Assembly: GCA_963796685.1 (NCBI GenBank)
Contig: CAWCMR010000016.1
Location: 1 to 62,918 of the forward strand
From: an uncultured delta proteobacterium
Lineage (GTDB): Bacteria; Myxococcota_A; Polyangia; Fen-1088
DNA length: 62,918 nucleotides
Direction of reading: 5' to 3'
Shown here piece after piece: positions 3,692 to 51,500 of this stretch (position 1 is its first letter; each line of letters opens with the position of its first letter). Under the pieces are notes generated by a model, which saw only the letters and a program-made list of their open reading frames with translations, searched no databases and was not told where the DNA came from. Made by a program: the position numbers and the translations under genes.

Positions 3692-6600
3692 ATGTCCGAC
3701 ATCGAGATTGATTTTCACAAGACCTGGCTCGGCTTCGTTCAGCCGGTCGAGGGCCTGGTTTTCTCGATCCCGGTCCTGCTCGACGCCGGTTGCATGGAGC
3801 GCAAGCCCGTCGCCCTCCAGCAACGCCTGCGCGAGCTCGCCCCCGCCGTCAGCGACGACCCCGGCGCCGCCCGCCAGCTCGCCGACCTCGACCGATTTCT
3901 CACCGACATCCTCGACCTGCCCCCCGACCTCTTCGACCGCGCCGACGCCCTTCCCCCCGACCTATCCCTCTACGTCCCCGAAGGCCGCCAAGACCTCCGC
4001 CCCACCCTCGCCCTGCGAAAGCAGCCCCAAACCGAATCCCCCGACCAAGGGTCCCCTCGCCCCGCAAGCGAAGCGCAGCGGGGAGAGGGACAGGGTGAGG
4101 GGGATCTCCTCCCCGACGACACCACCCCCGCCAGCCGCGCCGGTGCCGCCTACGAAATGCTCATCTGGTCCCTCCCCCCCGGTCTCGACCTCGACAAGCC
4201 CGAGATCGCCACCGGCCCCTGGGAATACGCGCCCGCGGCCAAGCTCGATCGCCTCCTGCGCGCCACTCGCGTGCCCATCGGGCTGCTGACCAACCATCAA
4301 TGCCTCCGCCTCATCTACGCCCCGCACGGCGAGGCGACCGGCTCCATCACCTTCTCGCTCGCCACCATGGCCGACGCCGGCGGGCGGCCAGTGCTCGACG
4401 CCTTCGCTACCCTGCTCTCCGCCGGCCGATTCTTTGCCGTTTCCCCCGAACGCCAGCTTCCCCAGATCCTGCGCGACAGCCGCCGCCGCCAGGCCAACGT
4501 CACCAACCAGCTTGCCGACCAGGTCCGCCAGGCCCTGGAATTCCTACTGCGCGGTTTCGAGTCCGCCGCCGACCGCGACAAAACCGGCACCCTCGACGAG
4601 GCCCTGGCCCGCGACGACGACCACGTCTACGGCGGCCTACTGACCGTCCTTCTGCGCCTGGTGTTTCTCCTCTACGCCGAGGATCGCGAGCTTCTGCCCA
4701 TCGGCGACAGCCGCTATTCCCGCCACTATTCGGTGCTGGGCTTGTTCGAGCAGTTGCAAGACGACCACGCCAACTTCCCCGACACCATGGTGCGCCGGTT
4801 CGGCGCCTGGCCGCGCCTGCTGGCCCTGTTCCGCATCGTGTTCGAAGGCGCGCAGCACGGACCCCTGGTCTTGCCCGCCCGCCGCGGCGACCTGTTCGAC
4901 CCCGCCCGCTACCCCTTCCTGGAAGGCTGGCCCGCGACCGGCGGCGCCCCCGTCGACACCGTGGCCCGCGCCAGCGTGCAGGTGCCCAGCGTCGACGACG
5001 AATCGATCTACCGCGTGCTCGAGAAGCTGCTCTACCTCGACCACCAGCGCCTGTCCTATCGCGCCCTCGACGTCGAGCAGATCGGCAGCGTGTACGAGGC
5101 CCTGATGGGCTTCCACGTCGTGCGCGTCCCCTCGCGCGCGGTGTGCGTGCGCGGCCCGCGCGTCTGGGTGCCTGTGACCGACCTGCTGGAAGTCGCGCCC
5201 GATCGCCGCGCCGCCTGGCTGGAGGACGAGGCCGGCGTCGAAAAGAGCGCCCTCAAGAAGGCCGGCGCCGACATCAAGGCCGCCAAGACCGAGGACGAGC
5301 TGCATCGCCGCCCTGCAAACCATCCAGGCCCGCGACACCGAGGTGGCGCGCCCGCTGCAAATCGTCCTGCAACCCGGTGTCGAGCGCCGCCGCACCAGCT
5401 CGCACTACACCCCGCGCTCGCTGTCCGAGCCCATCGTGCGGCGAACCCTAGAGCCGCTCATCGGCGCCATGACTCAAGTAGACGGCACCCCTCCCTCCGA
5501 GCGCCTACTCGACCTCAAGATCTGCGACCCGGCCATGGGCTCGGGCGCGTTCCTGGTGGCCGCTTGCCGCTTCTTGGCCGACCAGGTGGTGGCCGCGTGG
5601 ACGCGCGAGGGCCGCATGGAGGCCGTTGCCTCCGCCACCGAGGACGTCGTGACGCAAGCCCGCCGCCTGGTCGCCCAGCGCTGCCTGTACGGCGTAGACA
5701 AGAACCCCTTCGCCGTCAGTCTGGCCAAGCTGTCCCTGTGGCTGGTGACCCTGGCCAAGGACGAGCCCTTCACCTTCGTCGACCACGCCCTTCGCCACGG
5801 CGACTCGCTGGTCGGCCTGTCGCTCGATCAAATCCGAGCCTTCCACTGGAAACCCGAAAGCCAGCTTGAGCTGGTGGGCAAAGAGATCGAGACCGCCATC
5901 GACGAGGCCCTGGCCCTGCGCCTACGCATTCTCGACTTGGCACGCGACCACGGCAGCGCCATCACACGCGAGAAAGAGCGCCTGCTCTGGGACGCCGAGG
6001 ACGCCCTCGACCGCGTGCGCGTGATCGCGGATCTGGTCGTGGGCGCGTTCTTCGTCGCGGACGGCGACAAGGCCCGACAGGCCGAGCGCAACCGCCGTAT
6101 GGATCTCGTCACCACCTGGCTGCGCGATGGTGGCCCCGTTCCCGCCGAGCTGCGCGACCTGTGCGACGAGCTTCGCCAAGATGGCGAGGGACGCAAGGGC
6201 CTCCCGCCCTTTCACTGGATGATCGAATACCCCGAGGTCTTCTACGGTGAGCGCCCCGATCCCCTGGACAAGGATCACGTGAATCGAGCGGCGTGGATGG
6301 ATGCGTTTGTGGGGAATCCACCGTTTGCCGGCAAGAACGGCATCAGTGCCGCTGGCGGCGATGCGTACCTTCCCTGGCTACAACAGATCCACCCAGGCAG
6401 CCACGGCAACGCCGACCTCTGCGCGCACTTCTTCCGCCGCGCCGACTTCCTGTTAGGCGAGCACGGCACTATCGGCCTCATTGCCACGAACACCATTGCT
6501 CAGGGCGATACCCGCAGCACCGGCTTGCAGAACATAGTCAACGGCGGTAGCGCCATCTACGACGCCGTCCGCAGTATGAAATGGCCTGGTGAGGCCAACG

Positions 6601-7778
6601 TCTCCGTATCCGTTGTCCACATGGCCAAGGGCCACCTGGCCAGTGTCTCCGGTTTGCGGCGGCGGCTGGACGGGATCGAGGTCGCGGCGATCAACTCGCG
6701 CCTGCGGCCCAAGCCCGAGCGACCTGACCCGCATCCTCTCGCCGAGAACGCGGGCCTGAGCTTTGTCGGGAGCTACGTCCTTGGAATGGGCTTCATCCTT
6801 ACGCCCGATGAGCGGGACGCACTGATTCGCAAGAACAAGCGCAATGCCGAGCGGATCTTTCTTTACGTCGGTGGCGAGGATCTAAATACCAGTCCAACGC
6901 TGTCCAGTGATCGGTACGTGATCAACTTTGGCGACCTGCCGCTGGCGGAGGCAGAGAAGTGGCCGGACCTGGTCGCAATTCTGCGACAAAAAGTCAAACC
7001 GGAACGGGACAGGAACAACCGGAAGGCATATCGAGACTACTGGTGGCATTTCGGAGAAAAACGGCCGGAACTCTACGAAACGCTCAAGGGCAGAACGCGG
7101 TGCCTGGTAACATCGGGCATCAGCAAGCATCGCATTTTCGCGTTGTCGCCGACGGACCGAATCTTTAGCCACAACGTCTACGTTTTCCCGCTGGATGCGA
7201 ACACGCATTTCGCGGTTCTCCAGTCGCGCGCGCACATTGCGTGGACATCTCTTCTAGCTTCCGGGTTAGAGGACCGAGGTGGCTACCGTCCTTCCGACTG
7301 CTTCGACACCTTCCCATTCCCCGCCGCCGAGACCCTGACCCCCACCGGCGACCTCGAAGCCATCGGCACCCGTCTCTACGAAACCCGCGCCCACCTGATG
7401 GTCGAGCGCAACCAGGGCCTGACGACCAGCTACAACCAGCTCAAAGACCCCGCCTGCGACGACCCCGAGATCCTCGCCCTCCGCCGCCTCCACGAAGACC
7501 TCGACCGGGCAGTCCTCGCCGCCTACCACTGGTCCGACATCCCCGTCCCCCCATTCGAAACACCCACCACCCCCGCAGCCCGCACCGCCCAAGAATCCTT
7601 CGAAGACGAAATTATAGACCGCCTCTTCGCCCTCAACGCCGACCGGGCAGAAAAGGAACGTCTGCAAGGCGCCGGGGTTCGGCCCGCCTCAAAGTCTCGC
7701 AAATCGTCGAAAGCCCACGGAGGCGATGTACAGCTCAGTTTCGATTCGGAGCCGACGAGCAGGAAGGGCAAGCGATGA
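3692..7778 (+). CDS. drmMI: DISARM class I N6-adenine DNA methyltransferase DrmMI (Type IIG/MmeI-like architecture); +1 frameshift near 5303
   Basis: ORF 3692 joins ORF 5343-7778 if one base is removed at ~5303 (..EDEL-IAALQTIQARDTEVARPL..); IGSVYEAL, HYTPRSL, DPAMGSGAFL (motif I), GNPPF (motif IV), C-terminal target-recognition region. Confidence 0.85.
4053..4103. repeat. REP-like palindromic element inserted in frame inside drmMI
   Basis: cccctcgccccgc..gcggggagaggg..gggtgagggg; reverse complement resembles the intergenic copy at 41239-41295; translated as part of GSPRPASEAQRGEGQGEG. Confidence 0.65.
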
Positions 7779-9154
7779 CCTCCCTCGAAGAAGCCCGTCA
7801 AGCACTCGACCGCGCGGTGGAGGAAATCCGGTCGATCGAGATACCCGATCCCAAGAATCACCGACTTGTCGAGAGAGCAGCAAGAGCGGCTTTCGGTGGG
7901 GTATGCCGACTGATCGCTCTGATCCAGAAGAACCTCCACCTGGCTCGCGCGGCCGAGGAGTCGTCCTCTGACTACCGTCGGGAGGAGGCCCGTCTTCATG
8001 CGGAGGAGCGAAGCGCGCTGCTGCGACTGCGAAGGATCAGGAACGCGATTGTCGCCAAGTGCCAGAGTCTGGATCCATCGGTGCAAGTCACGGACCAGAC
8101 CGACGGCTCCAAGCTGGTCTCTGGGTTTGACGAATTCCTCGAAAAGGGGCTGAAGAAGCTGGGGCAGGATGATTCCTTTTTTTCGAGCGGCAAGCACAAG
8201 GCAACCGAACGACTATGGAATGTACTGGATTATGTAGACGAACATGAACCCCGGCTTGATCGCTGGAAGGAGGGGTGCCGAGCCAGCTCGATGAACCTGG
8301 GGCAGCTTCGTCGCGCTCGACATGTTCTGGACGAGAGCAGCCCCGGCAAGAGGTGGCTGCGGCTTGTCGACGTACCGGTCGCGGCCAACCCTCCCGAAGG
8401 TCCCCAGTTATGGCTGAGCGAATCCAACAGCTGGGAACCTCCGGCGCTGGGTCCGCTCTACAAGCTGGTCCACCACCAGCGATTCCTTGACGAGCCAGAG
8501 TGCAGGAGGGCTTGCGATTGGCTGTCGGACTTGCGAACGAGCCTGCATGCCGTTGCAAGCGACTTCCATGCCCGGCTTGGTCGGCGAGCGTCCATCGCCT
8601 GGATCCTGGAACGTTACGCGCGCCGTTGCCGACGCCTTCGGCGAAACGAATTGAGAGAGATGCTGGAGGAGCTTGCGCCGACCGAGAAACGAGAGCTTGC
8701 ACTGACCCGCGATGCAGCCGTGTTCCTGTTCGACCATGGCTTCGAGGTGCTGACCGAGCAATCTGAGGGAACTCACCGCTATGACATCATTGGAGATCAG
8801 CTTCTTGTCGAAGCTAAGATCTACGATGGCAGGCGTCGCGGTCTGGCTGCCGTCGCGGAAGGGCTATCACAAATCCACCAGTACGCGAACACGCTGGCCG
8901 ACGGAGGAGTACACGTCGAGCCGGTTCTTCTCGTCTTCCGCCTTGGCGGCCCGCGCGCGACGCCAGTGTTGGAGTACAAGATCGGTAACCTCCCCGTAAC
9001 CATCGCTCACGTCGATCTGGGAACAAGCGTCGATAGCGGCAGCAATTCGCCACCACCAGAACCCGACATCACCGAGGCGATCATCGCAGCCAAACTTGCA
9101 CGCATGACGAGTGCTCCTGGAAGAAGAACCAAGAAGGGACATCGAGGCGGGTAG
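7775..9154 (+). CDS. Hypothetical protein with helical N-terminus and C-terminal PD-(D/E)xK restriction-endonuclease-like domain
   Basis: ATG at 7775 overlaps the drmMI stop (ATGA); C-terminal E..(RYD)..LLVEAK..GLSQIHQY fits PD-(D/E)xK plus QxxxY. Confidence 0.65.
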   Translation: MTSLEEARQALDRAVEEIRSIEIPDPKNHRLVERAARAAFGGVCRLIALIQKNLHLARAAEESSSDYRREEARLHAEERSALLRLRRIRNAIVAKCQSLDPSVQVTDQTDGSKLVSGFDEFLEKGLKKLGQDDSFFSSGKHKATERLWNVLDYVDEHEPRLDRWKEGCRASSMNLGQLRRARHVLDESSPGKRWLRLVDVPVAANPPEGPQLWLSESNSWEPPALGPLYKLVHHQRFLDEPECRRACDWLSDLRTSLHAVASDFHARLGRRASIAWILERYARRCRRLRRNELREMLEELAPTEKRELALTRDAAVFLFDHGFEVLTEQSEGTHRYDIIGDQLLVEAKIYDGRRRGLAAVAEGLSQIHQYANTLADGGVHVEPVLLVFRLGGPRATPVLEYKIGNLPVTIAHVDLGTSVDSGSNSPPPEPDITEAIIAAKLARMTSAPGRRTKKGHRGG

Positions 9155-9157
9155 ATC

Positions 9158-9889
9158 ATGGGTACGCTGTTTTCCACCGACATACCAATCGTTCAGGACC
9201 TGACCGATCACGGCGATGTTCCGGTCGTGCACACCGGCTGTGCGGTCTACAGCATCGACAGCGCAGGTAGGCGCTGGGTCCGCAAGCGCGAATCAAACAC
9301 CGGCGTCGAGGAGCTCCTCGCCGAGATGATCGGCTGGCTGCTGGCGCGCAGGTTGCTCGTTCCGGTTCCCGAGGCTGGCGTGTTTGTTGTCGGGAATGAT
9401 CGGTCATGGCTCAGCGCCGAGATTCAAGATGTCCTGCACTGGGATTCGTCGCGGGCTCCCTTCGTGACCAACATGGCCGGGCTGGGTGCCATGATGGCCC
9501 TCGATACGATGATCCTGAATGAGGACCGGCATGCGGGAAACATCCTGCTTCAGCCTTTCCCGGACCAACTTCACCTGAAGGTATGGGCGGTCGACCACGG
9601 AAGCGCCTTGGTAGGTTGGCCGAGCGACTACGTGGCGCGGCGGGGGCAAATCCCTGATCCGCGAAACCTTGCGCCCGGGCTGCCGATGGATCTTGTGCAG
9701 GACGGCGCCATGGAAGCGGCGGAAAAGGCGACTTACCTGGTCTTGCAGGACATACTTGCTCTCGTAAGGGAGGCTTGCACCAACGCCGCGGAGCAGAAGA
9801 TTGACGAAATCGTAAGCGTTTTGGCAGAGCGCTGCGCGAATGCCAGGGCACTTGTCGAGAGCTACCTCAAGCGTATAAGAGGGGGCTGA
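9158..9889 (+). CDS. HipA-like (HipA_2-type) kinase
   Basis: WVRK, LLAEMIGWLLARRLLVPVP, LDTMILNEDRHAGNILL catalytic loop, VDHG metal-binding motif; 243 aa. Confidence 0.8.
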   Translation: MGTLFSTDIPIVQDLTDHGDVPVVHTGCAVYSIDSAGRRWVRKRESNTGVEELLAEMIGWLLARRLLVPVPEAGVFVVGNDRSWLSAEIQDVLHWDSSRAPFVTNMAGLGAMMALDTMILNEDRHAGNILLQPFPDQLHLKVWAVDHGSALVGWPSDYVARRGQIPDPRNLAPGLPMDLVQDGAMEAAEKATYLVLQDILALVREACTNAAEQKIDEIVSVLAERCANARALVESYLKRIRGG

Positions 9890-38040: not shown

Positions 38041-39451
38041 GGCTCTCCTGACATCTTCGTAAGGGGAGATCTCGTAGGTGCGACGCACGTCGCCGACGGA
38101 GATGTGGGCGGCATGAGTTTCGGGTGAGGTGGAGACGAAGTGCGCACGGGCACCTGGGGTATCGTGTGGCTTGTCTAGAACCCACAAGCCCAGGAGCCCA
38201 TGCGCGCAACCACCCTATTCCGAAACCTACTCCAATTTCCACATACCCGTGTCCTGGCGGTCGAATTCGATCTGCTTGGCATATTGGTGCACGTGGCGCC
38301 AACGACGACCGTTCCCTACTGCTCAGGCTGCGGATGTCGGGTCCATGACGTGTTCGATGCTCGGGCTCGGAACTGGCGGCATCTGGACGCGTGCGGGATG
38401 GAGGTTCTTCTGCGCTACACCCTGCGCAGGGTTGACTGTCCTCGGTGCGGCGTGGTCATCGAGATGGTCCCTTGGGCCGAGCCGAAGGTCGGCTTCACGC
38501 GTGACTTCGAGGACCACGTGGCCTATCTGGCCCAACAAGCAAGCCAGACGATGGTGGCCGAAACCATGCGCATCGCGTGGCGCACCGTCGGCGCCATCAT
38601 CCAGCGGGTGGTGCCGCGGCACCGAGATCCTAGCCTTCTCCTCGAGGACCTCGAACACATCGGCGTCGACGAGTTGTCGTACCGGCGGCACCATGAGTAC
38701 GTCACCGTCGTTGTCGACCACGTCTCGCAGCGGGTCGTCTGGGCCCACGAGGGCAAGAACGCTGCGACGCTCGGCTGCTTCTTCGACGCTCTCGGCCCGG
38801 AACGAACCAGCAAGCTCAAGACCGTCACCATCGACATGTCCGCGGCCTACATCGACGCGGTCACCTCGCGAGCGCCACAAGCGCAGATCGTCTTCGACCG
38901 CTTCCACGTTCAGAGACTCGTGCAGGAAGCACTCGACGAGCTCCGGCGTGCGGAGGTCCGACTCCTGGAGGACACCGACGAACGCGGGCAACTGAAGAAG
39001 ACCAAGTACCTTCTGCTCAAGAATCCGTGGAACCTATCCAGGGCCGAGTCTGAGAGGCTGTCGACCCTCCCGAAGACCAATGCCCGACTCTATCGCGGCT
39101 ACCTGCTCAAGATCGCCATCTGCGACATCCTCGGTCGTCGCCAGGTCAACGTCGTCAAACAGAAGCTCGAAGAATGGATCAGTTGGGCCAGGCGATCCAG
39201 ACTACCTTCCTTCAAGAAGGTCGCCGCGACCATCAAGAAATACCTGGACGGCATCGTGGCCATTGTCGCCACAGGGCTCAATAACGGAAGAACCGAGGGC
39301 CTTAATGGCAAGATCAGGGTCATCACCCGCAGGGCCTATGGCTTCCACAACGCTCAAGCCCTCATTGGCTTCATCTTCCTCTGCTGCTCAGGCGTTGTCC
39401 TTCATCCCGTCTTCAAGGTGCCCGCGCTTCCATGAAGATGTCAGGAGAGCC
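38041..39451 (+). mobile_element. ISL3-family insertion sequence (1411 bp)
   Basis: 18-bp perfect terminal inverted repeats ggctctcctgacatcttc; single transposase; flanks (gaagtttt / tgaaattt) are not a matching target duplication. Confidence 0.92.
38200..39435 (+). CDS. ISL3-family transposase
   Basis: Zinc ribbon CSGC..CPRC, IGVDE, TIDMS, FDRFHV, NGRTEGLNGKIRVITRRAYGF. Confidence 0.95.
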   Translation: MRATTLFRNLLQFPHTRVLAVEFDLLGILVHVAPTTTVPYCSGCGCRVHDVFDARARNWRHLDACGMEVLLRYTLRRVDCPRCGVVIEMVPWAEPKVGFTRDFEDHVAYLAQQASQTMVAETMRIAWRTVGAIIQRVVPRHRDPSLLLEDLEHIGVDELSYRRHHEYVTVVVDHVSQRVVWAHEGKNAATLGCFFDALGPERTSKLKTVTIDMSAAYIDAVTSRAPQAQIVFDRFHVQRLVQEALDELRRAEVRLLEDTDERGQLKKTKYLLLKNPWNLSRAESERLSTLPKTNARLYRGYLLKIAICDILGRRQVNVVKQKLEEWISWARRSRLPSFKKVAATIKKYLDGIVAIVATGLNNGRTEGLNGKIRVITRRAYGFHNAQALIGFIFLCCSGVVLHPVFKVPALP

Positions 39452-42864: not shown

Positions 42865-42890
42865 TCAACCCGTTCGGTGCTCTACGACAC
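42865..42890. repeat. 26-bp direct repeat copy 2, overlapping the ppk1 stop codon
   Basis: tcaacccgttcggtgctctacgacac vs copy at 68-93. Confidence 0.75.
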
Positions 42891-45131
42891 GAGCACGGGC
42901 GGCGGCGTCCGGATGGACGGCACGTCGCCTTCGGGCGATCGGGCGTGGGTCGGCTTGGCGAGCACGAAGACGGGTCCGCCCAAGGGCGTTTCCTTGTGTG
43001 CGCTCGGGGTCGCCAGCTCCTGGCTGCGTTTGCGCGCCATGGCCACGAAGCTTTCCTGGCTGCGCACCCGTGGGGCGTCCTTGTCCGGAGCCACGCGCTG
43101 GTAGGTACCGTCCGGAAGCAACACGCGCGCGCGCACGTTGTCGGCCAACTGGGTGGCCAGAATCTCTTTCAAGATGCGCGCACGCAGGGTTTCGTCGTCG
43201 ATGGGAAACATGACCTCGATCCGGCGCACGAAATTGCGCGGCATCCAATCGGCCGACGAAAGGTAGACCTCGTTCTTGCCGCCGGCCTCGAAGTAGAAGA
43301 TGCGCGCGTGCTCGAGGAAGCGATCCACCGTGCTGGTCACGCGGATGTTTTCGCTTTGTCCCCGGATACCGGGCTGCAGGCAACAGATGCCCCGCACGAG
43401 CAGGTCGATGCGCACGCTCTGCTGCGAGGCCCGGTAGAGCGCGCGGATGACGTCCGGATCGACCAGGGAATTCATCTTGGCGATGATGTGTCCCTTGTCG
43501 CCGAAGGTGCTTTCGCGCGCGATGAGCTCGAGGATGCGCTCCTTGAGCCCGAGCGGCGCCACCGTGAATCGCTTCCACGAGGGCGGCGCAGAATACCCCG
43601 TGATCAGGTTGAACAAGGCCCCGGCGTCGTCGGCAAAGTCCTCGCGCGCGGTGAGATAGGAGAGGTCGCTGTACACACGCGCGGTCGCCGGGTTGTAATT
43701 GCCGGTGGACAGGTGGACGTATCGGCGGATCACGCCGAGCTCGCGACGAACCACCAGCGCGACCTTGCAATGGGTCTTGAACCCTATCAGGCCGTAGACC
43801 ACGTGGACGCCCGACTCTTCCAGCACGCGCGCCCACGCGATGTTGCGGCCTTCGTCGAAGCGCGCCTTGATCTCCACCACCGCGGTGACCTGCTTGCCGT
43901 TCTCCGCCGCGCGGATGAGCGCGCTGATGACGGGCGAATCCGCGCTGGTCCGGTACAGCGTCTGCTTGATGGCCAGCACGTCGGGGTCGTCGGCCGCCTC
44001 GGACACGAAATCGACGACGTGATCGAACGACTCGTAGGGGTGGTGCAGAAGGATGTCGCGCTCGGCGAGGGTCTTGAAGATCTCGCCTTCGTGCAACTGG
44101 GGAACCATCTGGGGCGCGAAGGGCTCGTCGTGGAAATCGCCCAGCAGCGGATGGTTGGCAAGCGGGGCCAGGTCGCCCATGCGCAGGGGGCCGTCCACGC
44201 GATACACGTCGGAGGGCTCGAGGCGCAAGGCCCCGCGCAGAAAGGCCTCGACCTCGGTGGGTGCGTCGCTGGCGACTTCCAAGCGCACCGCCTGCCCGCG
44301 CTCGCGCTTGCGCAACTCGCGCTGAATGGTCTTGAGCAGATCGTCCGCCTCGTCCTCGTCGATGGACAGATCGAAATTGCGCGTAACGCGAAACGGGCTG
44401 CACCCGACCACGCGAAAGCCCGGGAAGAGATCGCCCACGTCCATGGCGATCAGATCTTCCAGCAGGATGAACGCGGCCTGTCCTTCGCGGGCCGGCTCGA
44501 CCTCCACCAATCGGGGCAGCACGCCGGGAACCTGCACCACGGCGAAGATGATTTGCCGACGGGCGACGCGCTGGCGTTCCTTGTGTAGAAGAATGGCCAG
44601 GTTCAAGCTGCGATTGCGTAGCGTGGGAAAGGGATGTCCCTGATCCACGGCAAGCGGCGTGAGCACGGGCCACACGTCGCGGGCAAAGCGGACTTGCAAG
44701 GCGGAGCGCTGGCTCCCGGTGAGGTCGCCGGGCCTGACGAACTGGATTCCCGCCTTGTTCGCCAGCTTGGGCGCGATGTCCCCGCGCCAATTCTGGTACA
44801 GCGTCCGAATCATGTCGTGGGTGCGCGTGCTGATGCGAGCCAGCTGTTCGACGGGCGGCATGCCGTCGGCGTTCACGTCGACCACCCCGCCCGCGACCAA
44901 TTGCTTGAGCCCGGCCACGCGGACCATGAAGAACTCGTCGAGGTTGCTGGCGACGATGGCCTGGAACTTCAGCCGCTCGGCCAACTGAACCGTGGTGTCG
45001 CACGCCTCTTCGAGGACGCGGGCATTGAATTCCAACCAGGAGAGCTCGCGGTTAAAGAAGGTCCCCGGCTGGCTGTCGACCTGTTCCGCAACCGCCTGCG
45101 ATTTCTCCTTATTGGAAGCCCGGGAAGTCAA
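42882..45131 (-). CDS. ppk1: Polyphosphate kinase 1
   Basis: FNRELSWLEFNARVL, SNLDEFFMVRV, LLHHPYESF, KQTLYRT, KTHCK, STGNYN, RFLEHARI, SSADWMPRN. Confidence 0.97.
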   Translation of the reverse strand: MTSRASNKEKSQAVAEQVDSQPGTFFNRELSWLEFNARVLEEACDTTVQLAERLKFQAIVASNLDEFFMVRVAGLKQLVAGGVVDVNADGMPPVEQLARISTRTHDMIRTLYQNWRGDIAPKLANKAGIQFVRPGDLTGSQRSALQVRFARDVWPVLTPLAVDQGHPFPTLRNRSLNLAILLHKERQRVARRQIIFAVVQVPGVLPRLVEVEPAREGQAAFILLEDLIAMDVGDLFPGFRVVGCSPFRVTRNFDLSIDEDEADDLLKTIQRELRKRERGQAVRLEVASDAPTEVEAFLRGALRLEPSDVYRVDGPLRMGDLAPLANHPLLGDFHDEPFAPQMVPQLHEGEIFKTLAERDILLHHPYESFDHVVDFVSEAADDPDVLAIKQTLYRTSADSPVISALIRAAENGKQVTAVVEIKARFDEGRNIAWARVLEESGVHVVYGLIGFKTHCKVALVVRRELGVIRRYVHLSTGNYNPATARVYSDLSYLTAREDFADDAGALFNLITGYSAPPSWKRFTVAPLGLKERILELIARESTFGDKGHIIAKMNSLVDPDVIRALYRASQQSVRIDLLVRGICCLQPGIRGQSENIRVTSTVDRFLEHARIFYFEAGGKNEVYLSSADWMPRNFVRRIEVMFPIDDETLRARILKEILATQLADNVRARVLLPDGTYQRVAPDKDAPRVRSQESFVAMARKRSQELATPSAHKETPLGGPVFVLAKPTHARSPEGDVPSIRTPPPVLVS

Positions 45132-45164
45132 GGCCGGTAAGTCTGGCCCGCGGTTCGAGCGATG

Positions 45165-46730
45165 TCATGTGACAATTCTGCGACGATTCTTCGGCCCCAA
45201 GCCCCTGGCGTGATTCTTCGAGAGCGCGGCCGCCACGACCAGCCTGGTGGAGAAAACCCTATGGAAAAGCTGGGCTTCATGCCCCACGTCCCACAATTCG
45301 AGATCCGCCGGCCCCTGGGTTTGCAGCCGCAGCACGGCTTTTCCATCCGTAACCTCGGCGCGTATATTGCTTATGGGCTGCGCGTGGCTGCGGTCCAGGG
45401 CGTCCGCGACCCGCAGTAGCGTGGCCAGCTTGCGCACATAACGCGCCTCGCTGGTCGAGAGGCCCTCCATGCCAGGATGGTGCAGATCGGGGGGACTGCG
45501 GCGATGGAAACGGGCGATGCGCGCCACGATGTCGCGTTCGCGATCCGCGAGACCCGGAATATCGCCGTTGCGCACGAGGTACTCGGTGTGACGGTGATGC
45601 TTCTGGTAGCTCACCGAATGGCCGATGTCGTGCAACACCGCCGCGACCTCGAGGTAGGGACGCACCGCCATGGGCAAGCGGTGCAGCCCCGCCAGTTGAT
45701 CGAACATGGCGATGGCAAGCCTGGCGACCTGCATGGCGTGGGCCTCGTCGAAGAAGAAGCGCCTGCCCATGGTGCGCGCAGCGTCGATCAGCGACGAATC
45801 GTCCGCATCGCGGAAACGCCTGCGCACCAGATCCACGAGCACCCCGTGCCGCAAACCCCGATCGACCGCGGTGACCGCGTGCAGCGAAAGATGATGGGCC
45901 AGCGCCTCCAAGATCACGGCACCGGCCACGATGACGTCGGCGCGCCGGGTGTCGAAACGCTGGTGACGTTCGTCGGGATCCATGCGCGCCAGCTTCTCCA
46001 CGGCGTGCGAGATCTGTTCGGCCGTGGCGTGCGCCGTGCCCTCGGCTGCGGCCATGCCGATGATGGCCCGGATCGAGCCCGAGCTGCCCAGCGCCACGCG
46101 CGGGAAGCCACGGATCCCTGGCGGCAGCGAATCCTCCACGGCCTCGCGCGCGAACTCGCGCAGCAGGCGAAGCTGCTTCGTGGACACATCGCGATGACTC
46201 TTGAAGATCTCGGTCAAGCGAACGGAGCCGATGGCCACGCTCCACAATTTCGAGGGTTGGTCGCCGATGGCGCCAGCCACCTCGGTCGAGCCGCCGCCGA
46301 TGTCGAGGCAAAGCGAACGCGCCTTGGGGGGCCGCCCGGACAGTACGCCCAGACACATGAGGCGCGCTTCCTCCTTGCCCGAGATGGCTTCGAGCTCCAG
46401 ACCCGCCTCGCGCTTGACCCGGCGGATGATGTCTTCGCGATTCTTGGCCTCGCGCAAGGCGCTGGTGCCCACGGCGCGCACGCGTGCCTGGTGCCGCTTG
46501 CAAATGATGGCGTAGCGGCGCAGGACGCCCACCAGACGGTCGACGACGATCGGGGGAATGAAGCCGGTCTGGAACAGTCCCTCGCCGGGGCGAACGGGAT
46601 CGCGCTCCTGGCGCACCGACTCGATGCTGCCGTCGGAAAAGCCGCGCGCGATTTCCAGGCGAACGGCATTGGCGCCGACATCGATGGCCGCAATCAGGGT
46701 TTCGGTCGCTTTGGGTTTCATCCTGGACAC
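45165..46730 (-). CDS. ppx: Exopolyphosphatase Ppx/GppA with HD domain
   Basis: AAIDVGANAVR, GTSALREAKN, ISGKEEAR, DIGGGSTE, LHDIG. Confidence 0.92.
   Translation of the reverse strand: MSRMKPKATETLIAAIDVGANAVRLEIARGFSDGSIESVRQERDPVRPGEGLFQTGFIPPIVVDRLVGVLRRYAIICKRHQARVRAVGTSALREAKNREDIIRRVKREAGLELEAISGKEEARLMCLGVLSGRPPKARSLCLDIGGGSTEVAGAIGDQPSKLWSVAIGSVRLTEIFKSHRDVSTKQLRLLREFAREAVEDSLPPGIRGFPRVALGSSGSIRAIIGMAAAEGTAHATAEQISHAVEKLARMDPDERHQRFDTRRADVIVAGAVILEALAHHLSLHAVTAVDRGLRHGVLVDLVRRRFRDADDSSLIDAARTMGRRFFFDEAHAMQVARLAIAMFDQLAGLHRLPMAVRPYLEVAAVLHDIGHSVSYQKHHRHTEYLVRNGDIPGLADRERDIVARIARFHRRSPPDLHHPGMEGLSTSEARYVRKLATLLRVADALDRSHAQPISNIRAEVTDGKAVLRLQTQGPADLELWDVGHEAQLFHRVFSTRLVVAAALSKNHARGLGPKNRRRIVT
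45169..45186 (-). promoter_or_regulatory. Pho-box-like site upstream of ppk1, inside the ppx 3' end
   Basis: Minus strand TCGTCGC-agaa-TTGTCAC with 11-bp period; first half-site degenerate. Confidence 0.45.
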
Positions 46731-46739
46731 GATTTCGGG

Positions 46740-47603
46740 CTAGGCCCCCGCCAACTTGCGGCGCAACTTGTGCAGCGCCGCTTGGCGCTCTTTCGAGACC
46801 TCGGGATAGCTCAAATCCAGCTCGGCCATGCGCTGGGTGATGATCTCCGCCACGGCGACGCGCGTGTACCATTTGTTGTCCGCGGGAACGGCGTACCACG
46901 GGGCGTGCTTGGTGCTCGTGTTTTGCAGCATGTCCTCGTAGGCCTTCATGTAGTCGTTCCACAGCGCTCGCTCGGCCACGTCGGATTCGGCGAATTTCCA
47001 GTTCTTGCTCGGCTTGTCGAGGCGCTTGAGCAGGCGCTTGAGCTGGGCGTCTCGCGAAACGTTGAGGAAGATCTTGATGGGCACCACGGCGTTGTTGACC
47101 AGATAGCGCTCCACCGCATTGATGTCCTCGAAACGGCGCCGCCACACGTCTTTCCTGCACGGCTCGGGAAGACTCTGCTTGTCGAGGAATTGAGGGTGCA
47201 CCCGCACCACCAGCACCTCTTCATAGTAGGAACGGTTGAAGATTCCGATGCGCCCGCGCTCGGGCATGTTCTTCATGTAGCGCCACATGAAGTCGTGATC
47301 GAGCTCCTCGCGCGACGGCTCCTTGAAGCTCACCACCTGGCAACCTTGTGGGTTCACGCCCGACATGACGAACTTGATTGTGCTGTCCTTGCCGGCGGCA
47401 TCCATGGCCTGCAGCACGACCAGCACGGCCCACTTGTCCTGCGCGTAGAGCTTGTCCTGCATCTCGGCCAAGGAATTCCGGCACTTCTCCAGCATGGAGA
47501 GGCCTTCCTTCTCGTCGCGAACGCCCTCGGTGCTGTCGGTGGGAAGCTTCTCCACCGAGAGCTTCTTGCCGCTGCTCGGGACCAGAAAGTGCTGGATGTT
47601 CAT
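46740..47603 (-). CDS. ppk2: Polyphosphate kinase 2 family protein
   Basis: QAMDAAGKDSTIK, FNRSYYEEVLVVRVH, APWYAVPADNKW; start ATG 47603. Confidence 0.92.
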   Translation of the reverse strand: MNIQHFLVPSSGKKLSVEKLPTDSTEGVRDEKEGLSMLEKCRNSLAEMQDKLYAQDKWAVLVVLQAMDAAGKDSTIKFVMSGVNPQGCQVVSFKEPSREELDHDFMWRYMKNMPERGRIGIFNRSYYEEVLVVRVHPQFLDKQSLPEPCRKDVWRRRFEDINAVERYLVNNAVVPIKIFLNVSRDAQLKRLLKRLDKPSKNWKFAESDVAERALWNDYMKAYEDMLQNTSTKHAPWYAVPADNKWYTRVAVAEIITQRMAELDLSYPEVSKERQAALHKLRRKLAGA

Positions 47604-47652: not shown

Positions 47653-50022
47653 TCAAGGCAAGAGGGGCGGATCGGCTTTTTGCGCCAGCTCCAGAGCGTA
47701 CCCCGGAAACCACGTCCCCGCGGCAGGATCGACCATGCCCCAAAGCGGGTCGAAGTGCTTCTGGCTATCGCCGACGATACCCCAAGGATTGTACCGTTCG
47801 TAGCTCCACGCCCGCGCGCCTCCCGCGACGTCGCACGATCCGTCCGATTCTCCGACGGTCTTGATCCACAGGTACGCGTCCAACAGATCCACGCCCGTCG
47901 CGGTGGTGGGCCGCACGCCAAGCCCCGTGCCCGGTGGGTTGCACCAGGCGCCCGCGGCCAGGCCACGGATGACGGCATCGGGCTGGGCAAAGGGCGCCTC
48001 GGCGTAGCGAGCGGTATCGAGCGGACCCCGTCCGCTGCGGCCGGTGTCGATCACGAAGTGGGCAAGCGCGGCCGAATCCGCGGTGACGTTTTTCGCGTAC
48101 CACGCCTCCGTTTGTGCCCAGGCAGCCTCGTCGCCCGCGCTCTCGTCCATGGGTTGACTGGCGCAGCGGCGAAAGGCGCCGGGGGTCCCTGCCTCGTTCC
48201 TGCCCAGGGTCGCGTACCTCAGACACTTCGAGATCCAGGTGGCGTAACGGATGGAATGCCGGACGAGCTGAAAATTCGAGACATTGACGGCAAAGCCCTG
48301 CGCCCCGAGCACGCCGCTGCGGTACAGACGGTAGGCAGCCTCGCCCACGGGCAACCAGGCGGCATGGGTGCCGTCGAGATAGACCAGCGCATGGGGAGCC
48401 AGCTTGGCCAAGCTGGCCGTGGCGTATCGGATCTGCGCGTAGGCTTCGTCGGCGGTGGCCCCCGGCGCCGGTATCATCTTGCCGCGGCCATCGGTCACGG
48501 TGGGCCGGCACGAGTCGGCGGTGCCGTCGAGGCTGGTGCTGTAGGGAATCATGCCCGTGCTGTCGGGTTCCAGGATCACCAGCGCGCGCTCGTTGCCGAG
48601 GCCGCGCGCGAACCCGTCGATCCACGCCTGGTAGGCGGCCGTGTTCTGGGCCCCCCCCGCGCTGAAGCCCGCGCAGTCGCGGTAGGGCCGGTTGCTGGCG
48701 ACCAGCACGCGCAGGGCGAGATCCCGCGCGGCTCTGACCATGGCATTGCTCACGGCGCCCTGGACCTCCTCGGGCGTGCCCTTGGAAAACCAGATGGCCT
48801 GCGGAACCGCTTCCATAGCCGTGATGGCCGCCGCCTCTCGCCCCGCGTTCGACTTCGCCAGGGCCGCGATCTGCTCGACCGCGCCCGGATTGGGCGGCGG
48901 CACGAAGAGACGGGTGCCGGTGGGATAGGACCGTCGCGCGATGTCGGGCGCCTTGTGCCGCGCGGGAAGAAGAGCGAGGACAAGAGCGAGGACGAGCGCA
49001 AGCGCAACCGCCGCCGCCGAGGCGACGATATAGACGCCTGCGCGGCGGTGCTCGAGCAGACCGGGTCCGAGGCCGACGTCCTTGTCGTCGTCATGGCGGG
49101 CGGAACCCGCGACGGTGGTCGCGTTGGCCTCGCGTGCGTCGCTCGGCGACGGCCACACCTCGCGCTTGGCGAAGGGCGCAAGCTCCTGGGCAAAGGCCTC
49201 GACCGAGTCCGGGCGTTCGCGTGGCTCGGAGCTGAGCGCGCGGTTCACGCTCGCGGTCAGGGCCTCGGGAAGCCCGAGGTCGCTGCCGTCGAGAGGCAGC
49301 GCGGGCTGCGTGCAGATGTGGTGAAGGATGGCGTTGTGCGAATCCCCGGGGTGGGGCTTCTTCCCCGAGAGCAGCTCGTAGAGAACGGCGCCGAGCCCGT
49401 AAATGTCGGTGCGATGATCCACCGTCTTCTCGCCGCGCGCCTGCTCGGGCGAGAGGTAGGCGGGCGTGCCCAGGATGGTCCCCGTGCGCGTCTCCGCGCT
49501 TTGGACCGCCTCCAGCTTCGCGATGCCGAAGTCGAGCACCTTGACCAGATCGGTTCCGTCCTCGCGGCGGCACACGAAGAGGTTCTGCGGGTTGAGGTCG
49601 CGGTGGACGATCCCGGCCTTGTGCGCCACCCCCACCCCGCGGCACGCCTGCGCGACGATGTCCGTGGCGCGCGACACGGGCAGGCGTCGGCTGCGGTCCA
49701 TGAGAACGCGCAGGCTCTCGCCGGCCAGGTACTCCATGACGATGTAGGGCGAGCCGCTCTCGGCGATGCCGAAGTCGACGGCGGCGGCGATGTTCTCGCT
49801 TTCGAGCTCGCCCGCGGTCTGAGCTTCGCGCTGAAAACGCGCCAGGCTCTCCCGTTGCGACGCCAGCTCGGCGTGCAGCAGCTTGACCGCGAATCGTCGT
49901 TTGACCACGGTGTGCTGGGCCTCGTACACGGCGCCCATGCCACCCGAAGCAAGAAAGCGAACCAGCCGGTATTTTCCCCCGACGATTTCCCCGACCTTGA
50001 TGTTGTAGGGCGCGCCCGTCAC
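47653..50022 (-). CDS. Ser/Thr protein kinase - transmembrane helix - GH6 glycoside hydrolase domain fusion
   Basis: GTG start overlapping upstream TGA; kinase GGMGAVY, AVK, VHRDLNPQN, DFG, GTPAYLSPEQ; TM VYIVASAAAVALALVLALVLALL; GH6 RDC, ILEPD, NVSNF, FVIDTGR, WCNPPG.GLG, DAYLWIK..GESDG, AGTWF. Confidence 0.85.
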   Translation of the reverse strand: MTGAPYNIKVGEIVGGKYRLVRFLASGGMGAVYEAQHTVVKRRFAVKLLHAELASQRESLARFQREAQTAGELESENIAAAVDFGIAESGSPYIVMEYLAGESLRVLMDRSRRLPVSRATDIVAQACRGVGVAHKAGIVHRDLNPQNLFVCRREDGTDLVKVLDFGIAKLEAVQSAETRTGTILGTPAYLSPEQARGEKTVDHRTDIYGLGAVLYELLSGKKPHPGDSHNAILHHICTQPALPLDGSDLGLPEALTASVNRALSSEPRERPDSVEAFAQELAPFAKREVWPSPSDAREANATTVAGSARHDDDKDVGLGPGLLEHRRAGVYIVASAAAVALALVLALVLALLPARHKAPDIARRSYPTGTRLFVPPPNPGAVEQIAALAKSNAGREAAAITAMEAVPQAIWFSKGTPEEVQGAVSNAMVRAARDLALRVLVASNRPYRDCAGFSAGGAQNTAAYQAWIDGFARGLGNERALVILEPDSTGMIPYSTSLDGTADSCRPTVTDGRGKMIPAPGATADEAYAQIRYATASLAKLAPHALVYLDGTHAAWLPVGEAAYRLYRSGVLGAQGFAVNVSNFQLVRHSIRYATWISKCLRYATLGRNEAGTPGAFRRCASQPMDESAGDEAAWAQTEAWYAKNVTADSAALAHFVIDTGRSGRGPLDTARYAEAPFAQPDAVIRGLAAGAWCNPPGTGLGVRPTTATGVDLLDAYLWIKTVGESDGSCDVAGGARAWSYERYNPWGIVGDSQKHFDPLWGMVDPAAGTWFPGYALELAQKADPPLLP

Positions 50023-51393
50023 TTGCGCGCGCCCTCCCCGCCTCGAATGGCCCCGAGATCCACCGCGTGGCTCTCCATGAGGCGGTAGGCACGCTGGCGG
50101 GTGATGCCGAGCATGGCAGCGGCGCGTGCCACATTCCCGCCCGCGGCACGTAGCGCGGCCAGCAGGGCGGGCAACTCGACCGTCTCGCCACCGGCGCGCC
50201 CCGGCTCGGCGTGGGAGCTGCCCTTGCCGGCAGGCGCGGCAGCGCTTGGTTCGGCGGCCGGCGTGCCGATACGCGCGGGAAGGTGCTCGGCACGCAGCAG
50301 GGATTCGCCGGGATGAAGCACCAGGAGCTGGCGGATCAGCCTGCACCAGCTCGCGTACGTTGAAGGGCCAGTCGTGGACGCACAGCCGTTCGACCAGGTC
50401 GCACTCGACCGCGGGCGCCCGCCCCTTGGTCCATTCCCGCAGCAGGTGCGAAAACAGTTGAGGAACGTCTTCTTTGCGTTGGCGCAGCGGCGGCAAACGC
50501 ACGGTGATACCATCCAGGCGGGCCAGCAGATCGGCGCGAAAGCGGCCCTCGCGTACGGCGTCCATCAGCGGTTGCTGGCTGGCCACCACGATGCGCACGT
50601 CCACCGGCACCGGTCGGGTCTCGCCGAGCGGCTGCACCTCCCCTTCCTGCAGCACGCGTAGAAGCTTGGCCTGCAAGGGGAGCGGCAGATCCGACACCTC
50701 GTCGAGCAGCAGGGTCCCGCCCTGGGCGCTGCGAAAGAATCCCGGACTGGCTCGATCCGCGCCGGTGAAAGCGCCTCGACGGTAGCCGAACAGCTCGCCC
50801 TCGGCCAAGCCCTCGGGAAGGGCGGCGCAATTGACCGCGACCAGGGGCCCGGGACGGCCGCTCCAGGCGTGCACGCCGCGGGTGACCATCTCCTTGCCCG
50901 TCCCGGTCTCGCCCTCGAGCACGATGGTGAGGTTGCTCGGAGCCACCTGCCGCAGGGGCGCGAGGGCGGCTTGCAGAACGGCGCCGCCCAGCAACCCTGG
51001 CGCGATCTCGGTGAAGGCGCCCGGCAAGGCCACCACCACCCCCACCCAGCCCCCGACGCGAACTACGTCGGCGCAGCCCAGCTCGGCCGACGCCACGGTC
51101 TGGCCGTTCACGCGAATGCCGTTGCGACTGCCGAGATCCTCGAGGCGGAACACCGAGGCTCCTGCAGCTCGCCGGATGGCCGCATGCCGCCTGGAGACGT
51201 CGTTTCCGTCCAGACGAATGGCGCACGCAGGATCCCGGCCGACGAGCCATTCACCCTCGCCTTGCGACTGCAACGGCACGGCGGGAAGGTCGGCGCGCGG
51301 GAACAGCCACGCCAGGGCAAGCGTCTCCTTGCCATCGCCACGCCGGGGAACGTTGGCTTCCGTGATGGTGGTGGTCCCCGCGTCTTGGCCCAT
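50019..51393 (-). CDS. FHA-domain sigma54-dependent enhancer-binding protein; +1 frameshift near 50341
   Basis: FHA VGR..VSRRHA..DLGSRNG; GETGTGKE, GAFTGA, LLLDEV, WPFNVREL; Fis-HTH GGNVARAAAMLGITRQRAYRLM restored by removing one base; start 51393 or 51411. Confidence 0.87.
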
Positions 51394-51500
51394 GGCGATC
51401 CCCGATCTCATACCATAGCTGCGGCCTAGCTGGTTTCGCACTTCGAGTCGTCAGCGAAGAGGTTGATGATTCCGCGAAGCCGATAGGCTTGGCGCACAAT

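Follow-up and report, generated by a model that had tools for sequence, protein, structure and literature searches.

In Clostridium thermocellum, the regulator RsgI6 carries a module of glycoside hydrolase family (GH) 10 that is 57% identical to Xyn10D, has very low activity and binds both xylan and cellulose, and sigma-I6 drives xylanase promoters (PMC4711584, available excerpts). The hybrid two-component systems (HTCS) of Bacteroides recognise oligosaccharides in the periplasm and turn on the matching degradative genes (PMC3404733, available excerpts), and in the PknH–EmbR pair of Mycobacterium tuberculosis a Hanks kinase that spans the membrane and has its sensor domain outside the cell signals to a regulator that bears a forkhead-associated (FHA) domain (PMC8636726 and PMC9239209, both in excerpt). 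How cellulose is sensed and cellulases are induced in Gram-negative soil bacteria, especially myxobacteria, is poorly understood. Myxococcus xanthus reportedly has sigma54 activators built of FHA, AAA+ and helix-turn-helix (HTH) domains, which act in fruiting-body development and presumably receive their signals from Ser/Thr kinases; we know of no cognate sensor ectodomain and no carbohydrate link for these enhancer-binding proteins (EBPs). The subject of the present work is a two-gene module from an uncultured delta proteobacterium (Myxococcota_A; Polyangia; Fen-1088), in which an FHA-bearing EBP is encoded next to a receptor that joins a Hanks kinase to a GH6 domain. The module lies on the minus strand at 47653–51393 of contig CAWCMR010000016.1 (assembly GCA_963796685.1), the whole of which, 62,918 nucleotides in length, is referred to below as the window.

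It is considered fairly probable that an attenuated ectodomain derived from a cellulase serves here as a sensor, signalling through the Hanks kinase and the FHA-EBP to sigma54 promoters. The conserved architecture and EBP pairing, a decay of the catalytic centre seen only in the clade of fused proteins, and, in relatives, sigma54 sites accompanied by a palindrome after the kinase gene and mostly before GH6 genes all back this reading, so that the glucan sensor inferred in a preliminary description of the window has gained comparative support.

Architecture of the receptor kinase and its activator

The receptor gene (47653–50022, minus strand) begins with GTG and encodes 789 amino acids that make up a Hanks kinase, one transmembrane (TM) helix, a GH6 domain and a C-terminal extension; the open frame, the Pfam matches and the hydropathy profile bear out the earlier statement that these parts lie in a single unbroken frame. 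Pkinase (PF00069) was matched over residues 19–239 (E 6.9e-39, 134 bits) and PK_Tyr_Ser-Thr over residues 21–272, which places the kinase domain at 49207–49968 (residues 19–272). Its catalytic residues are present in the translation, namely K47, E66, D142 of the HRD motif (HRDLNPQN), N147, D164 of the DFG motif and SPE in the place of APE, and the activation loop contains threonines T178, T180 and T186. The TM helix occupies 48961–49035 (residues 330–354), and the only Kyte–Doolittle windows of 19 residues scoring above 1.6 in the whole protein begin at residues 327–340. Beyond it, the GH6 domain (47824–48858, residues 389–733) matches PF01341 with an E value of 5e-52 and 178.1 bits, against a curated cut-off of 27, and the GH6 motifs quoted in the preliminary description, VASNRPYRDC, LEPDS, GESDG and DTGRSG, were all found. 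Pfam assigned the 789-aa protein to kinase-type families and GH6 only, with no RsgI_N domain. Because no signal peptide precedes the 325-aa kinase, and because six cysteines of the ectodomain (450, 505, 600, 620, 694 and 730) are invariant or nearly so among homologues, the GH6 domain should lie on the periplasmic side of the helix.

The activator gene (50019–51393, minus strand) encodes an FHA domain, an AAA+ domain with the GAFTGA loop and a Fis-type HTH, and falls into two reading frames in the assembly. Pfam matches were obtained to FHA (E 8e-15, 55.5 bits), Sigma54_activat (PF00158, E 1e-54, 185 bits) and HTH_8 (E 2.8e-8), and the GAFTGA loop is read as YRRGAFTGA. The FHA and Sigma54_activat matches, together with the first 50 of the 87 positions of the AAA lid, share the frame of the kinase, which gives rise to a single open frame of 1262 amino acids at 47653–51441. 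HTH_8 is found in a separate frame (50019–50513), with the helix-turn-helix itself, AAMLGITRQRAYRLME, at 50094–50186; its RQRAYRLME stretch is identical in a paralogue on contig C13 of the same genome. The Met at 51393, which is M17 of the long frame and aligns with residue 1 of the paralogue, is likely to be the start of the activator, and it coincides with the end coordinate of the preliminary description. Numbered from it, the residues R53, S67, H70 and N91 of the FHA domain (51052–51249, minus strand), presumably those that bind phosphothreonine, are invariant in all 13 aligned activators. At the other end of the gene, the TGA that closes the HTH frame (50021–50019) overlaps the GTG of the kinase (50022–50020), so the GTGA overlap reported earlier is found in the sequence at 50019–50022; in two related loci (L036 and L047) the activator match likewise ends on the very base that begins the kinase match. 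Translational coupling of the two genes is probable from this arrangement.

An activator in one intact piece, as the preliminary description had it, is not present in this assembly, since an extra base near 50340, between the AAA+ lid and the HTH, puts the latter out of frame. The sequence at the switch is GAG CTG GTG CAG G CTG ATC CGC, giving RELVQ followed by LIRQLLVLH. Relatives lack this base, and of 13 non-redundant loci from relatives, 12 have the N- and C-terminal parts in one frame. The activator of locus L059 (L059:5394–6423), which comes from a metagenome-assembled genome, moves from frame 3 to frame 1 near 6031, a site unlike that of the window, which suggests that single-base breaks of this gene may be assembly errors. 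Apart from the extra base neither part contains a stop, and identity to orthologues is 78–80%. Among the sequencing runs listed as matching, none was of RNA, and only four soil DNA runs from one study matched small shares of the stretch (0.06–0.10) as short contigs at 90% likeness, mostly from relatives 90–95% alike. One of these runs, X2, gave a 164-base contig from a relative about 94% alike that lacks exactly one letter at 50340. No contig from the four runs, in which the window's own strain is uncovered, crosses the kinase–GH6 junction or covers the whole stretch. The extra base may be an error of assembly or a real mutation.

Distribution of kinase–GH6 proteins and pairing with the activator

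A protein search with the GH6 part returned 1337 proteins at E ≤0.001 among 8000 scored candidates. Among the best 120 of these, 75 carry PF00069 and PF01341 together, in proteins of 645–948 amino acids; the window protein belongs to a conserved family. The two nearest database proteins are 92–94% identical over the GH6 part. Of 301 genomes of the class, 24 contained a match to the subfamily, 19 of these being among the 46 genomes of the window's own family. In the GTDB species set, fused forms were found only in metagenome-assembled genomes with Polyangia, Myxococcales or proteobacterium in their titles; the same GH6 subfamily has members that stand alone in Actinomycetes, Acidobacteria, Chloroflexota and Polyangia. 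A search of the literature, with supplementary files outside its reach, found no account of a kinase–GH6 protein, and no kinase motif was seen in ten long GH5 or GH9 frames checked in the window's own genome.

The pairing with the activator is also conserved. Of 14 non-redundant kinase–GH6 loci, 12 have an FHA-EBP gene immediately upstream of the receptor gene and in the same orientation. L041/L069 has it at a distance of about 1.5 kb, on the opposite strand and partnered with a kinase that has no GH6 domain, and at L045 none was found within the 5.7 kb of sequence present.

Outside the myxobacteria, in Streptomyces and Kitasatospora (L116, L117 and L120–L124, at about 6870–9140) a second GH6 gene, roughly 30% identical to the query, lies directly before the stand-alone subfamily GH6, and the two thus form a tandem pair there also.

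Comparison of the GH6 domain with solved enzymes

An AlphaFold model of the ectodomain (residues 371–789), built on a 67-row alignment, has a mean pLDDT of 91.7. The model shows the distorted alpha/beta barrel of GH6, and its best fold matches by Foldseek are bacterial GH6 endoglucanases, with template-modelling scores of 0.83–0.88 by target and about 0.6 by query; for 1up0 the E value is 4e-22 and the score by target 0.85. The low score by query results from about 130 extra residues, in three insertions and the C-terminal extension. The closest solved sequences and folds are M. tuberculosis Cel6 (CelA1, 1up0), a GH6 enzyme from compost (6fao) and Cel6A of Thermobifida fusca. The window domain resembles T. 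fusca Cel6A (1tml) and CelA1 in its fold and in the aligned RDC, EPD and ESDG motifs; it differs from them in that both are secreted and have Tyr73, whereas the window domain forms part of a kinase protein, carries Ser at this place and contains the extra residues.

Residues 30–121 of the GH6 domain align without gaps to residues 30–121 of T. fusca Cel6A, so that the numbering of the two coincides. On this alignment Ser443 (codon 48694–48696, minus strand) falls on Tyr73, in agreement with the earlier observation that SNRPYRDC has Ser where GH6 enzymes usually have Tyr, and Asp487 of the EPD motif (codon 48562–48564, minus strand) falls on the catalytic acid, D117. The conserved Tyr of subsite −1 is therefore replaced in the window domain, and the equivalents of the catalytic pair D117 and D79 (D449) are retained, as are those of R78, D156 (domain D180), K259 (domain K351) and D265 (domain D357). 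The Tyr73 column holds Tyr in the wild-type entries 1tml and 2bod and Ser in 2boe, 2bof and 2bog, which are titled 'mutant Y73S'; the window thus carries naturally the residue engineered in T. fusca, and 2bof is titled as a complex with cellotetraose. Titles among the fold matches name the mutants Y73S and Y169F, and we take Ser443 to correspond to Tyr169 of Trichoderma reesei Cel6A (TrCel6A), and D221 of that enzyme to be the equivalent of D117. The conserved Tyr reportedly distorts the sugar ring at subsite −1; Tyr73 is said to strain the −1 sugar, and the Ser mutant to leave it relaxed. Four other GH6 genes are present in the window's own genome, three of them canonical (343–352 bits) and one a stand-alone member of the subfamily (216 bits), and the window copy scores 178 bits.

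Loss of catalytic residues among kinase-fused GH6 domains

To compare catalytic residues across the family, 215 sequences (120 from the database search, 94 read as frames in retrieved loci, and that of the window) were reduced to 206 distinct GH6 domains, of which 86 are fused to a kinase and 120 are not. Tyr73 is kept in 28 of the 86 fused domains (otherwise N in 24, S in 22, F in 8, H in 2, A in 1 and Q in 1) and in 111 of the 120 non-fused ones. The acid D117 is Asp in 73 of 86 fused domains (N in 9, H in 2, G in 1 and S in 1), and K259 and D265 are each kept in 79 of 86, against 118 of 120 non-fused domains for each of the three.

A tree was built with IQ-TREE from 158 GH6 domains at most 85% alike, with the catalytic columns omitted. 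All 55 fused sequences fall inside one clade of 70 leaves (SH-aLRT 99). The remaining 15 leaves of the clade are mostly N-truncated records whose first residues fall within the C-lobe of the kinase or at the TM helix. Such fragments of fused proteins, scored as non-fused, accounted for most label changes in a comparison of fusion and degeneracy by independent pairs, which was set aside as uninformative. When six residues of the catalytic centre (Y73, R78, D79, D117, K259 and D265, T. fusca numbering) were scored, the full set was found in 22 of the 70 leaves within the clade (15 of the 55 that carry the kinase) and in 87 of the 88 outside it. Parsimony requires at least 10 changes inside the clade, where 17 distinct degenerate states occur.

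The decay is confined to a small part of the protein. The 71 columns that are at least 93% conserved in 114 stand-alone domains have a median conservation of 0.98 in the 86 fused ones, and the largest drops were seen at 119 (the second position past the acid), 157, 73, 353 (between K259 and D265) and 68, at all five of which the window protein carries the derived residue. The kinase residues K47, E66, T178 and T186, the APE motif, D206 and R270 are retained in 84–86 of the 86 fused homologues, the residues counted being ones that were not used to define the fused group. Judged by sequence, catalytic decay is local and confined to the fused clade, with the fold, the kinase and the key FHA residues conserved, and the simplest reading would be a single fusion event after which hydrolysis was no longer selected, while selection still acts on the fold, the cleft and the signalling parts. 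Within the divergent and strongly degenerate branch of the clade (states such as YHDN..), the kinase–GH6 frames of L039, L043, L058, L059, L069 and L098 extend 80–115 codons past the GH6 match and so include an additional C-terminal piece.

These comparisons bear directly on the possibility that the GH6 domain is still a working, membrane-anchored periplasmic cellodextrinase or endoglucanase, a 'trigger enzyme' whose kinase reports turnover or some unrelated input. The window protein does have the equivalents of D79, D117, D265, K259 and R78 in a confidently modelled GH6 fold, and the clade members in which all six residues are intact show that a presumably active ectodomain is compatible with the kinase–GH6 architecture. 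Nor need single losses abolish catalysis: in TrCel6A, where D221 is the acid and D175, the analogue of T. fusca D79, is the proton acceptor through a water wire, the D175A variant retains 2–3% activity (PMC6091422, available excerpts). The acid is nevertheless replaced in 13 of the 86 fused domains, and K259 or D265 in seven each, so that the common function of the family cannot require hydrolysis; moreover, decay is limited to the fused clade, and the Ser of the window is the one engineered in the Y73S enzyme, whose structure 2bof is titled as a cellotetraose complex. That the GH6 domain is still a working enzyme of this kind is judged unlikely, and we prefer a sensor in which catalysis has been attenuated.

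Predicted sigma54 promoters and a shared palindrome in related loci

Sigma54 promoters were sought with TGGCAC-N5-TTGCW, allowing at most one mismatch and holding GG and GC fixed. The window's own genome (7.31 Mb), in which rpoN is present, contains 192 such sites, 13 of them without mismatch, which corresponds to about 0.002 expected in 160 nt of a single strand. Past the kinase–GH6 stop, on the coding strand and no farther than 160 nt away, a site was found in 8 of 13 related loci (L036, L037, L038, L039, L043, L047, L059 and L098). Sites with two mismatches follow the stop in L069 and L084, L049 has a poor site only, and L045 and L058 have no sigma54-like site within these 160 nt. As the next gene, L036, L037, L038 and L047 have a canonical GH6 that bears a lipoprotein signal (PF01341 at 343 bits in L036), L069 and L084 have a subfamily GH6 of the stand-alone kind, L039 has a PEGA/TPR protein, and L043, L059 and L098 each have a small secreted protein assigned to no family.

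Alignment of the regions after the kinase gene revealed a self-complementary sequence, CGGACGTCCG, often present as two copies 10–24 nt apart. It lies 70–200 nt upstream of the −24/−12 site in 10 of the 13 related loci and, in L036, L038 and L047, starts four bases past the kinase stop codon. L039 and L049 have a second pair, which lies upstream of the activator and faces a sigma54 site in divergent orientation.

A predicted target on another contig and a paralogous module in the same genome

A predicted sigma54 promoter with an upstream enhancer lies next to the module in 8–10 of the 13 related loci, and none occurs near the module in the window. In a scan of the genome for such promoters at genes for carbohydrate-active enzymes (CAZymes), they were found at two GH6 regions elsewhere, on contigs C8 and C13. 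In the window the place of the promoter and target gene of the relatives is occupied by PPK2 (46740–47603, minus strand; Pfam PPK2, E 1e-64). This gene starts 50 nt past the kinase–GH6 stop, and the short distance means that the two may be co-transcribed.

The genome as a whole holds 12 exact copies of CGGACGTCCG, against 27 expected from base composition, and two copies (at most one mismatch) come within 45 nt of each other in four places, two of which are exact pairs. The first exact pair, at C8:754050 and 754060, lies 73–83 nt upstream of a sigma54 site, TGGTACGCGCCTTGCT, which matches that of L038 in all 16 bases. A GH6 lipoprotein (MRHFAV...LSLAAC) in which the Tyr is present (VVYDLPNRDC) begins about 60 nt beyond this site and shares 77–81% identity with the GH6 that follows the kinase in L036, L037, L038 and L047. 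The sequence TGACCGCGGACGTCCG is common to C8 and the relatives, in which its TGA is the stop codon of the kinase. From this identity and the shared sequence, it appears that the target was separated from its sensor, either in the lineage or by assembly. Immediately upstream of the C8 enhancer and promoter lies a gene of HU/IHF type (L128:7223–7750, minus strand; Bac_DNA_binding, E 2.4e-11).

The second exact pair, at C13:547453 and 547477, lies within the 3' end of a paralogous Hanks kinase gene. This gene belongs to a module on C13 (G000:C13:547339–550196; L126:15340–16803 and L130:800–2197; minus strand) in which a complete FHA-EBP of 465 amino acids, 65% identical to the window activator, overlaps a kinase without GH6. 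The kinase has 487 amino acids and a TM helix, with a low-complexity tail of about 130 residues instead of the GH6 domain, and is 67% identical to the window kinase and 76% to that of L039. Downstream are, in order, a sigma54-like site with two mismatches, a TPR/PEGA protein, three lipoproteins without a family, and a second sigma54-like site with one palindrome-like copy; further on come the stand-alone subfamily GH6 and, a few genes later, a canonical GH6, with a major facilitator superfamily transporter between them on the other strand. The lipoproteins (242, 306 and 709 amino acids, encoded with the TPR/PEGA protein at L126:10327–15333, minus strand) have no Pfam family. The longest has no sequence match in Pfam or the PDB, and its GNEPD and LTEMN motifs recall, in our estimation, hydrolases of clan GH-A. 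Palindrome clusters on C11 and C26 were set aside, having a sigma54-like site with two mismatches or none and no named carbohydrate gene nearby.

The targets bear on a second alternative, in which the signalling is the same and the ligand is another glycan, such as a beta-glucan of mixed or other linkage, an exopolysaccharide made by the cell itself, or fragments of prey or fungal walls. The divergence of the subfamily fits such a ligand, as the window copy scores far below the canonical copies against PF01341, departs from the solved endoglucanases by three insertions and a C-terminal extension, and shows its most-changed residues lining the catalytic centre; in addition, some downstream genes are not cellulases, such as the PEGA/TPR protein and the small unknown proteins, and no characterised member of this GH6 subfamily is known to us. 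GH6 enzymes are, however, the commonest targets (6 of the 10 related loci with a promoter), the genome also contains GH5 and GH9 matches (at 11 and 6 places, respectively), and all GH6 enzymes of which we know act on beta-1,4 or mixed-linkage glucans. A ligand of another kind is judged about as improbable as a working enzyme, and cello-oligosaccharides are preferred. Finally, that the module is a decaying remnant, with a real frameshift, a lost activator and adjoining target, and signalling left to the C13 paralogues, would accommodate the extra base at 50340, the removal of the target GH6 to another contig with PPK2 in its place, the complete FHA-EBP, kinase and regulon on C13 and the ISL3 transposase 8 kb away, but seems quite improbable given an intact 789-aa frame that retains all family-conserved residues and close identity to its nearest relatives, an activator that is otherwise stop-free and similar to its orthologues, a frame change elsewhere in the same gene of L059, by which such breaks may be assembly errors, and an intact enhancer and promoter on C8.

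Other features of the window were noted. After the kinase–GH6 gene, at 42882–47603 on the minus strand, stand PPK2, Ppx/GppA and PPK1, all of polyphosphate metabolism. Variable DNA lies near the module that lost its adjoining target: the ISL3 transposase gene at 38200–39435 and a probable defence or restriction island at 182–21039, with genes for a helicase of SNF2 type, a methylase that is MmeI-like and has a target-recognition domain, a peptidase of the IrrE/M78 kind and a PLD-like protein. The only sigma54-like site of the window, TGGCGCGCAGGTTGCT (9342–9357, plus strand, one mismatch), lies inside a frame (9158–9889) with a weak match to PI3/PI4-kinase-like proteins.

A proposed signalling pathway

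On the reading preferred here, the window protein would be a one-component-like receptor Ser/Thr kinase whose periplasmic sensor is a former GH6 glucanase turned into a ligand-binding module. Soluble beta-1,4-glucan fragments (cello-oligosaccharides) released by the true cellulases of the cell would reach the periplasm; in a cell with two membranes, it is these that the domain would meet, and not cellulose fibres. The GH6 cleft would hold these oligosaccharides and cleave them little or not at all, since Ser stands in for the Tyr by which the −1 sugar is strained. An occupied cleft would activate the cytoplasmic Hanks kinase, leading to phosphorylation of its own threonines, and the FHA domain of the activator would dock on these phosphothreonines. 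The activator would then assemble on the paired CGGACGTCCG enhancers and open the sigma54 promoters of the GH6 cellulase and of neighbouring genes for secreted proteins and lipoproteins, with positive feedback on cellulose breakdown as the outcome. Topology, ligand, docking of kinase and FHA domain, enhancer binding and the direction of regulation are steps that we infer.

Several observations weigh against this pathway. The activator reads as frameshifted in this assembly, and neither a sigma54-like site nor CGGACGTCCG occurs near the kinase–GH6 module in the window. The charges flanking the TM helix do not favour an N-in orientation, with three positive residues before it and five after. The window GH6 keeps all three catalytic Asp residues and has lost only the Tyr, and many of the clade members with a full catalytic set stand near the base of the clade (FastTree leaf order), so that catalysis may persist, even as part of the signal. 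The ligand could be another beta-glucan. GH6-less kinase paralogues (C13 and L069) are paired with an EBP of the same type, which makes the GH6 domain dispensable for some modules of this kind. The 13 loci compared are homologous, and the motif counts therefore express conservation and not independent events. Genome-wide, a palindrome-like site (at most one mismatch) lies 40–320 nt upstream of a sigma54-like site in 4 of 192 cases, against 3.3 expected; as this is no commoner than chance, genome-wide co-occurrence was rejected as support. Two of these four pairs are GH6 promoters, and the predicted regulon rests on which genes carry the motif and on the exact tandem pairs.

Significance and comparison with known systems

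If the proposed pathway is right, a whole route can be read from the sequence, from sensor, kinase and phospho-reader through activator, enhancer and promoter to target enzyme, and Ser/Thr-kinase and sigma54 signalling would join RsgI/sigma-I, the Bacteroides HTCS and LacI-type repressors among the designs for polysaccharide sensing. The clade would also offer a graded natural series for the study of how an enzyme becomes a receptor, with intact, Tyr-less and acid-less forms side by side. Where sources name the kinase–GH6 proteins, it is as 'endoglucanase' or 'glycoside hydrolase family 6 protein', and counts of cellulases based on names would then include sensors. The chances seem evenly poised that the module represents an undescribed class of receptor kinase, in which a CAZyme domain was recruited once and lost catalysis repeatedly with its cleft kept, and in which a complete circuit, with a coupled FHA-EBP, CGGACGTCCG and sigma54 promoters, switches on cellulases in uncultured Polyangia.

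RsgI6 resembles the window protein in being a membrane regulator with an extracytoplasmic sensor of a glycoside hydrolase family, of very low activity, that controls like enzymes (PMC4711584, available excerpts). RsgI proteins differ in that an alternative sigma factor is freed by regulated proteolysis (PMC10328401, available excerpts), and their module, being that of a Gram-positive cell, is able to contact the polymer. The window system, in contrast, has a Hanks kinase and FHA-EBP with sigma54 output, belongs to a diderm, uses a GH6 module and lacks RsgI_N; its protein is RsgI-like in its working and is not a member of the RsgI family. PknH–EmbR is set apart by its regulator, as EmbR is not a sigma54 AAA+ activator. 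EmbR is a SARP-type regulator, and the ectodomain of PknH is not known to have a CAZyme fold or a defined ligand. The Bacteroides HTCS differ in using a His–Asp phosphorelay, with an AraC-type output, and a sensor domain that is not derived from an enzyme. The kinase–GH6 system is real and conserved, and it combines known kinds of component: receptor Hanks kinases, FHA-EBPs and polysaccharide sensors derived from enzymes.

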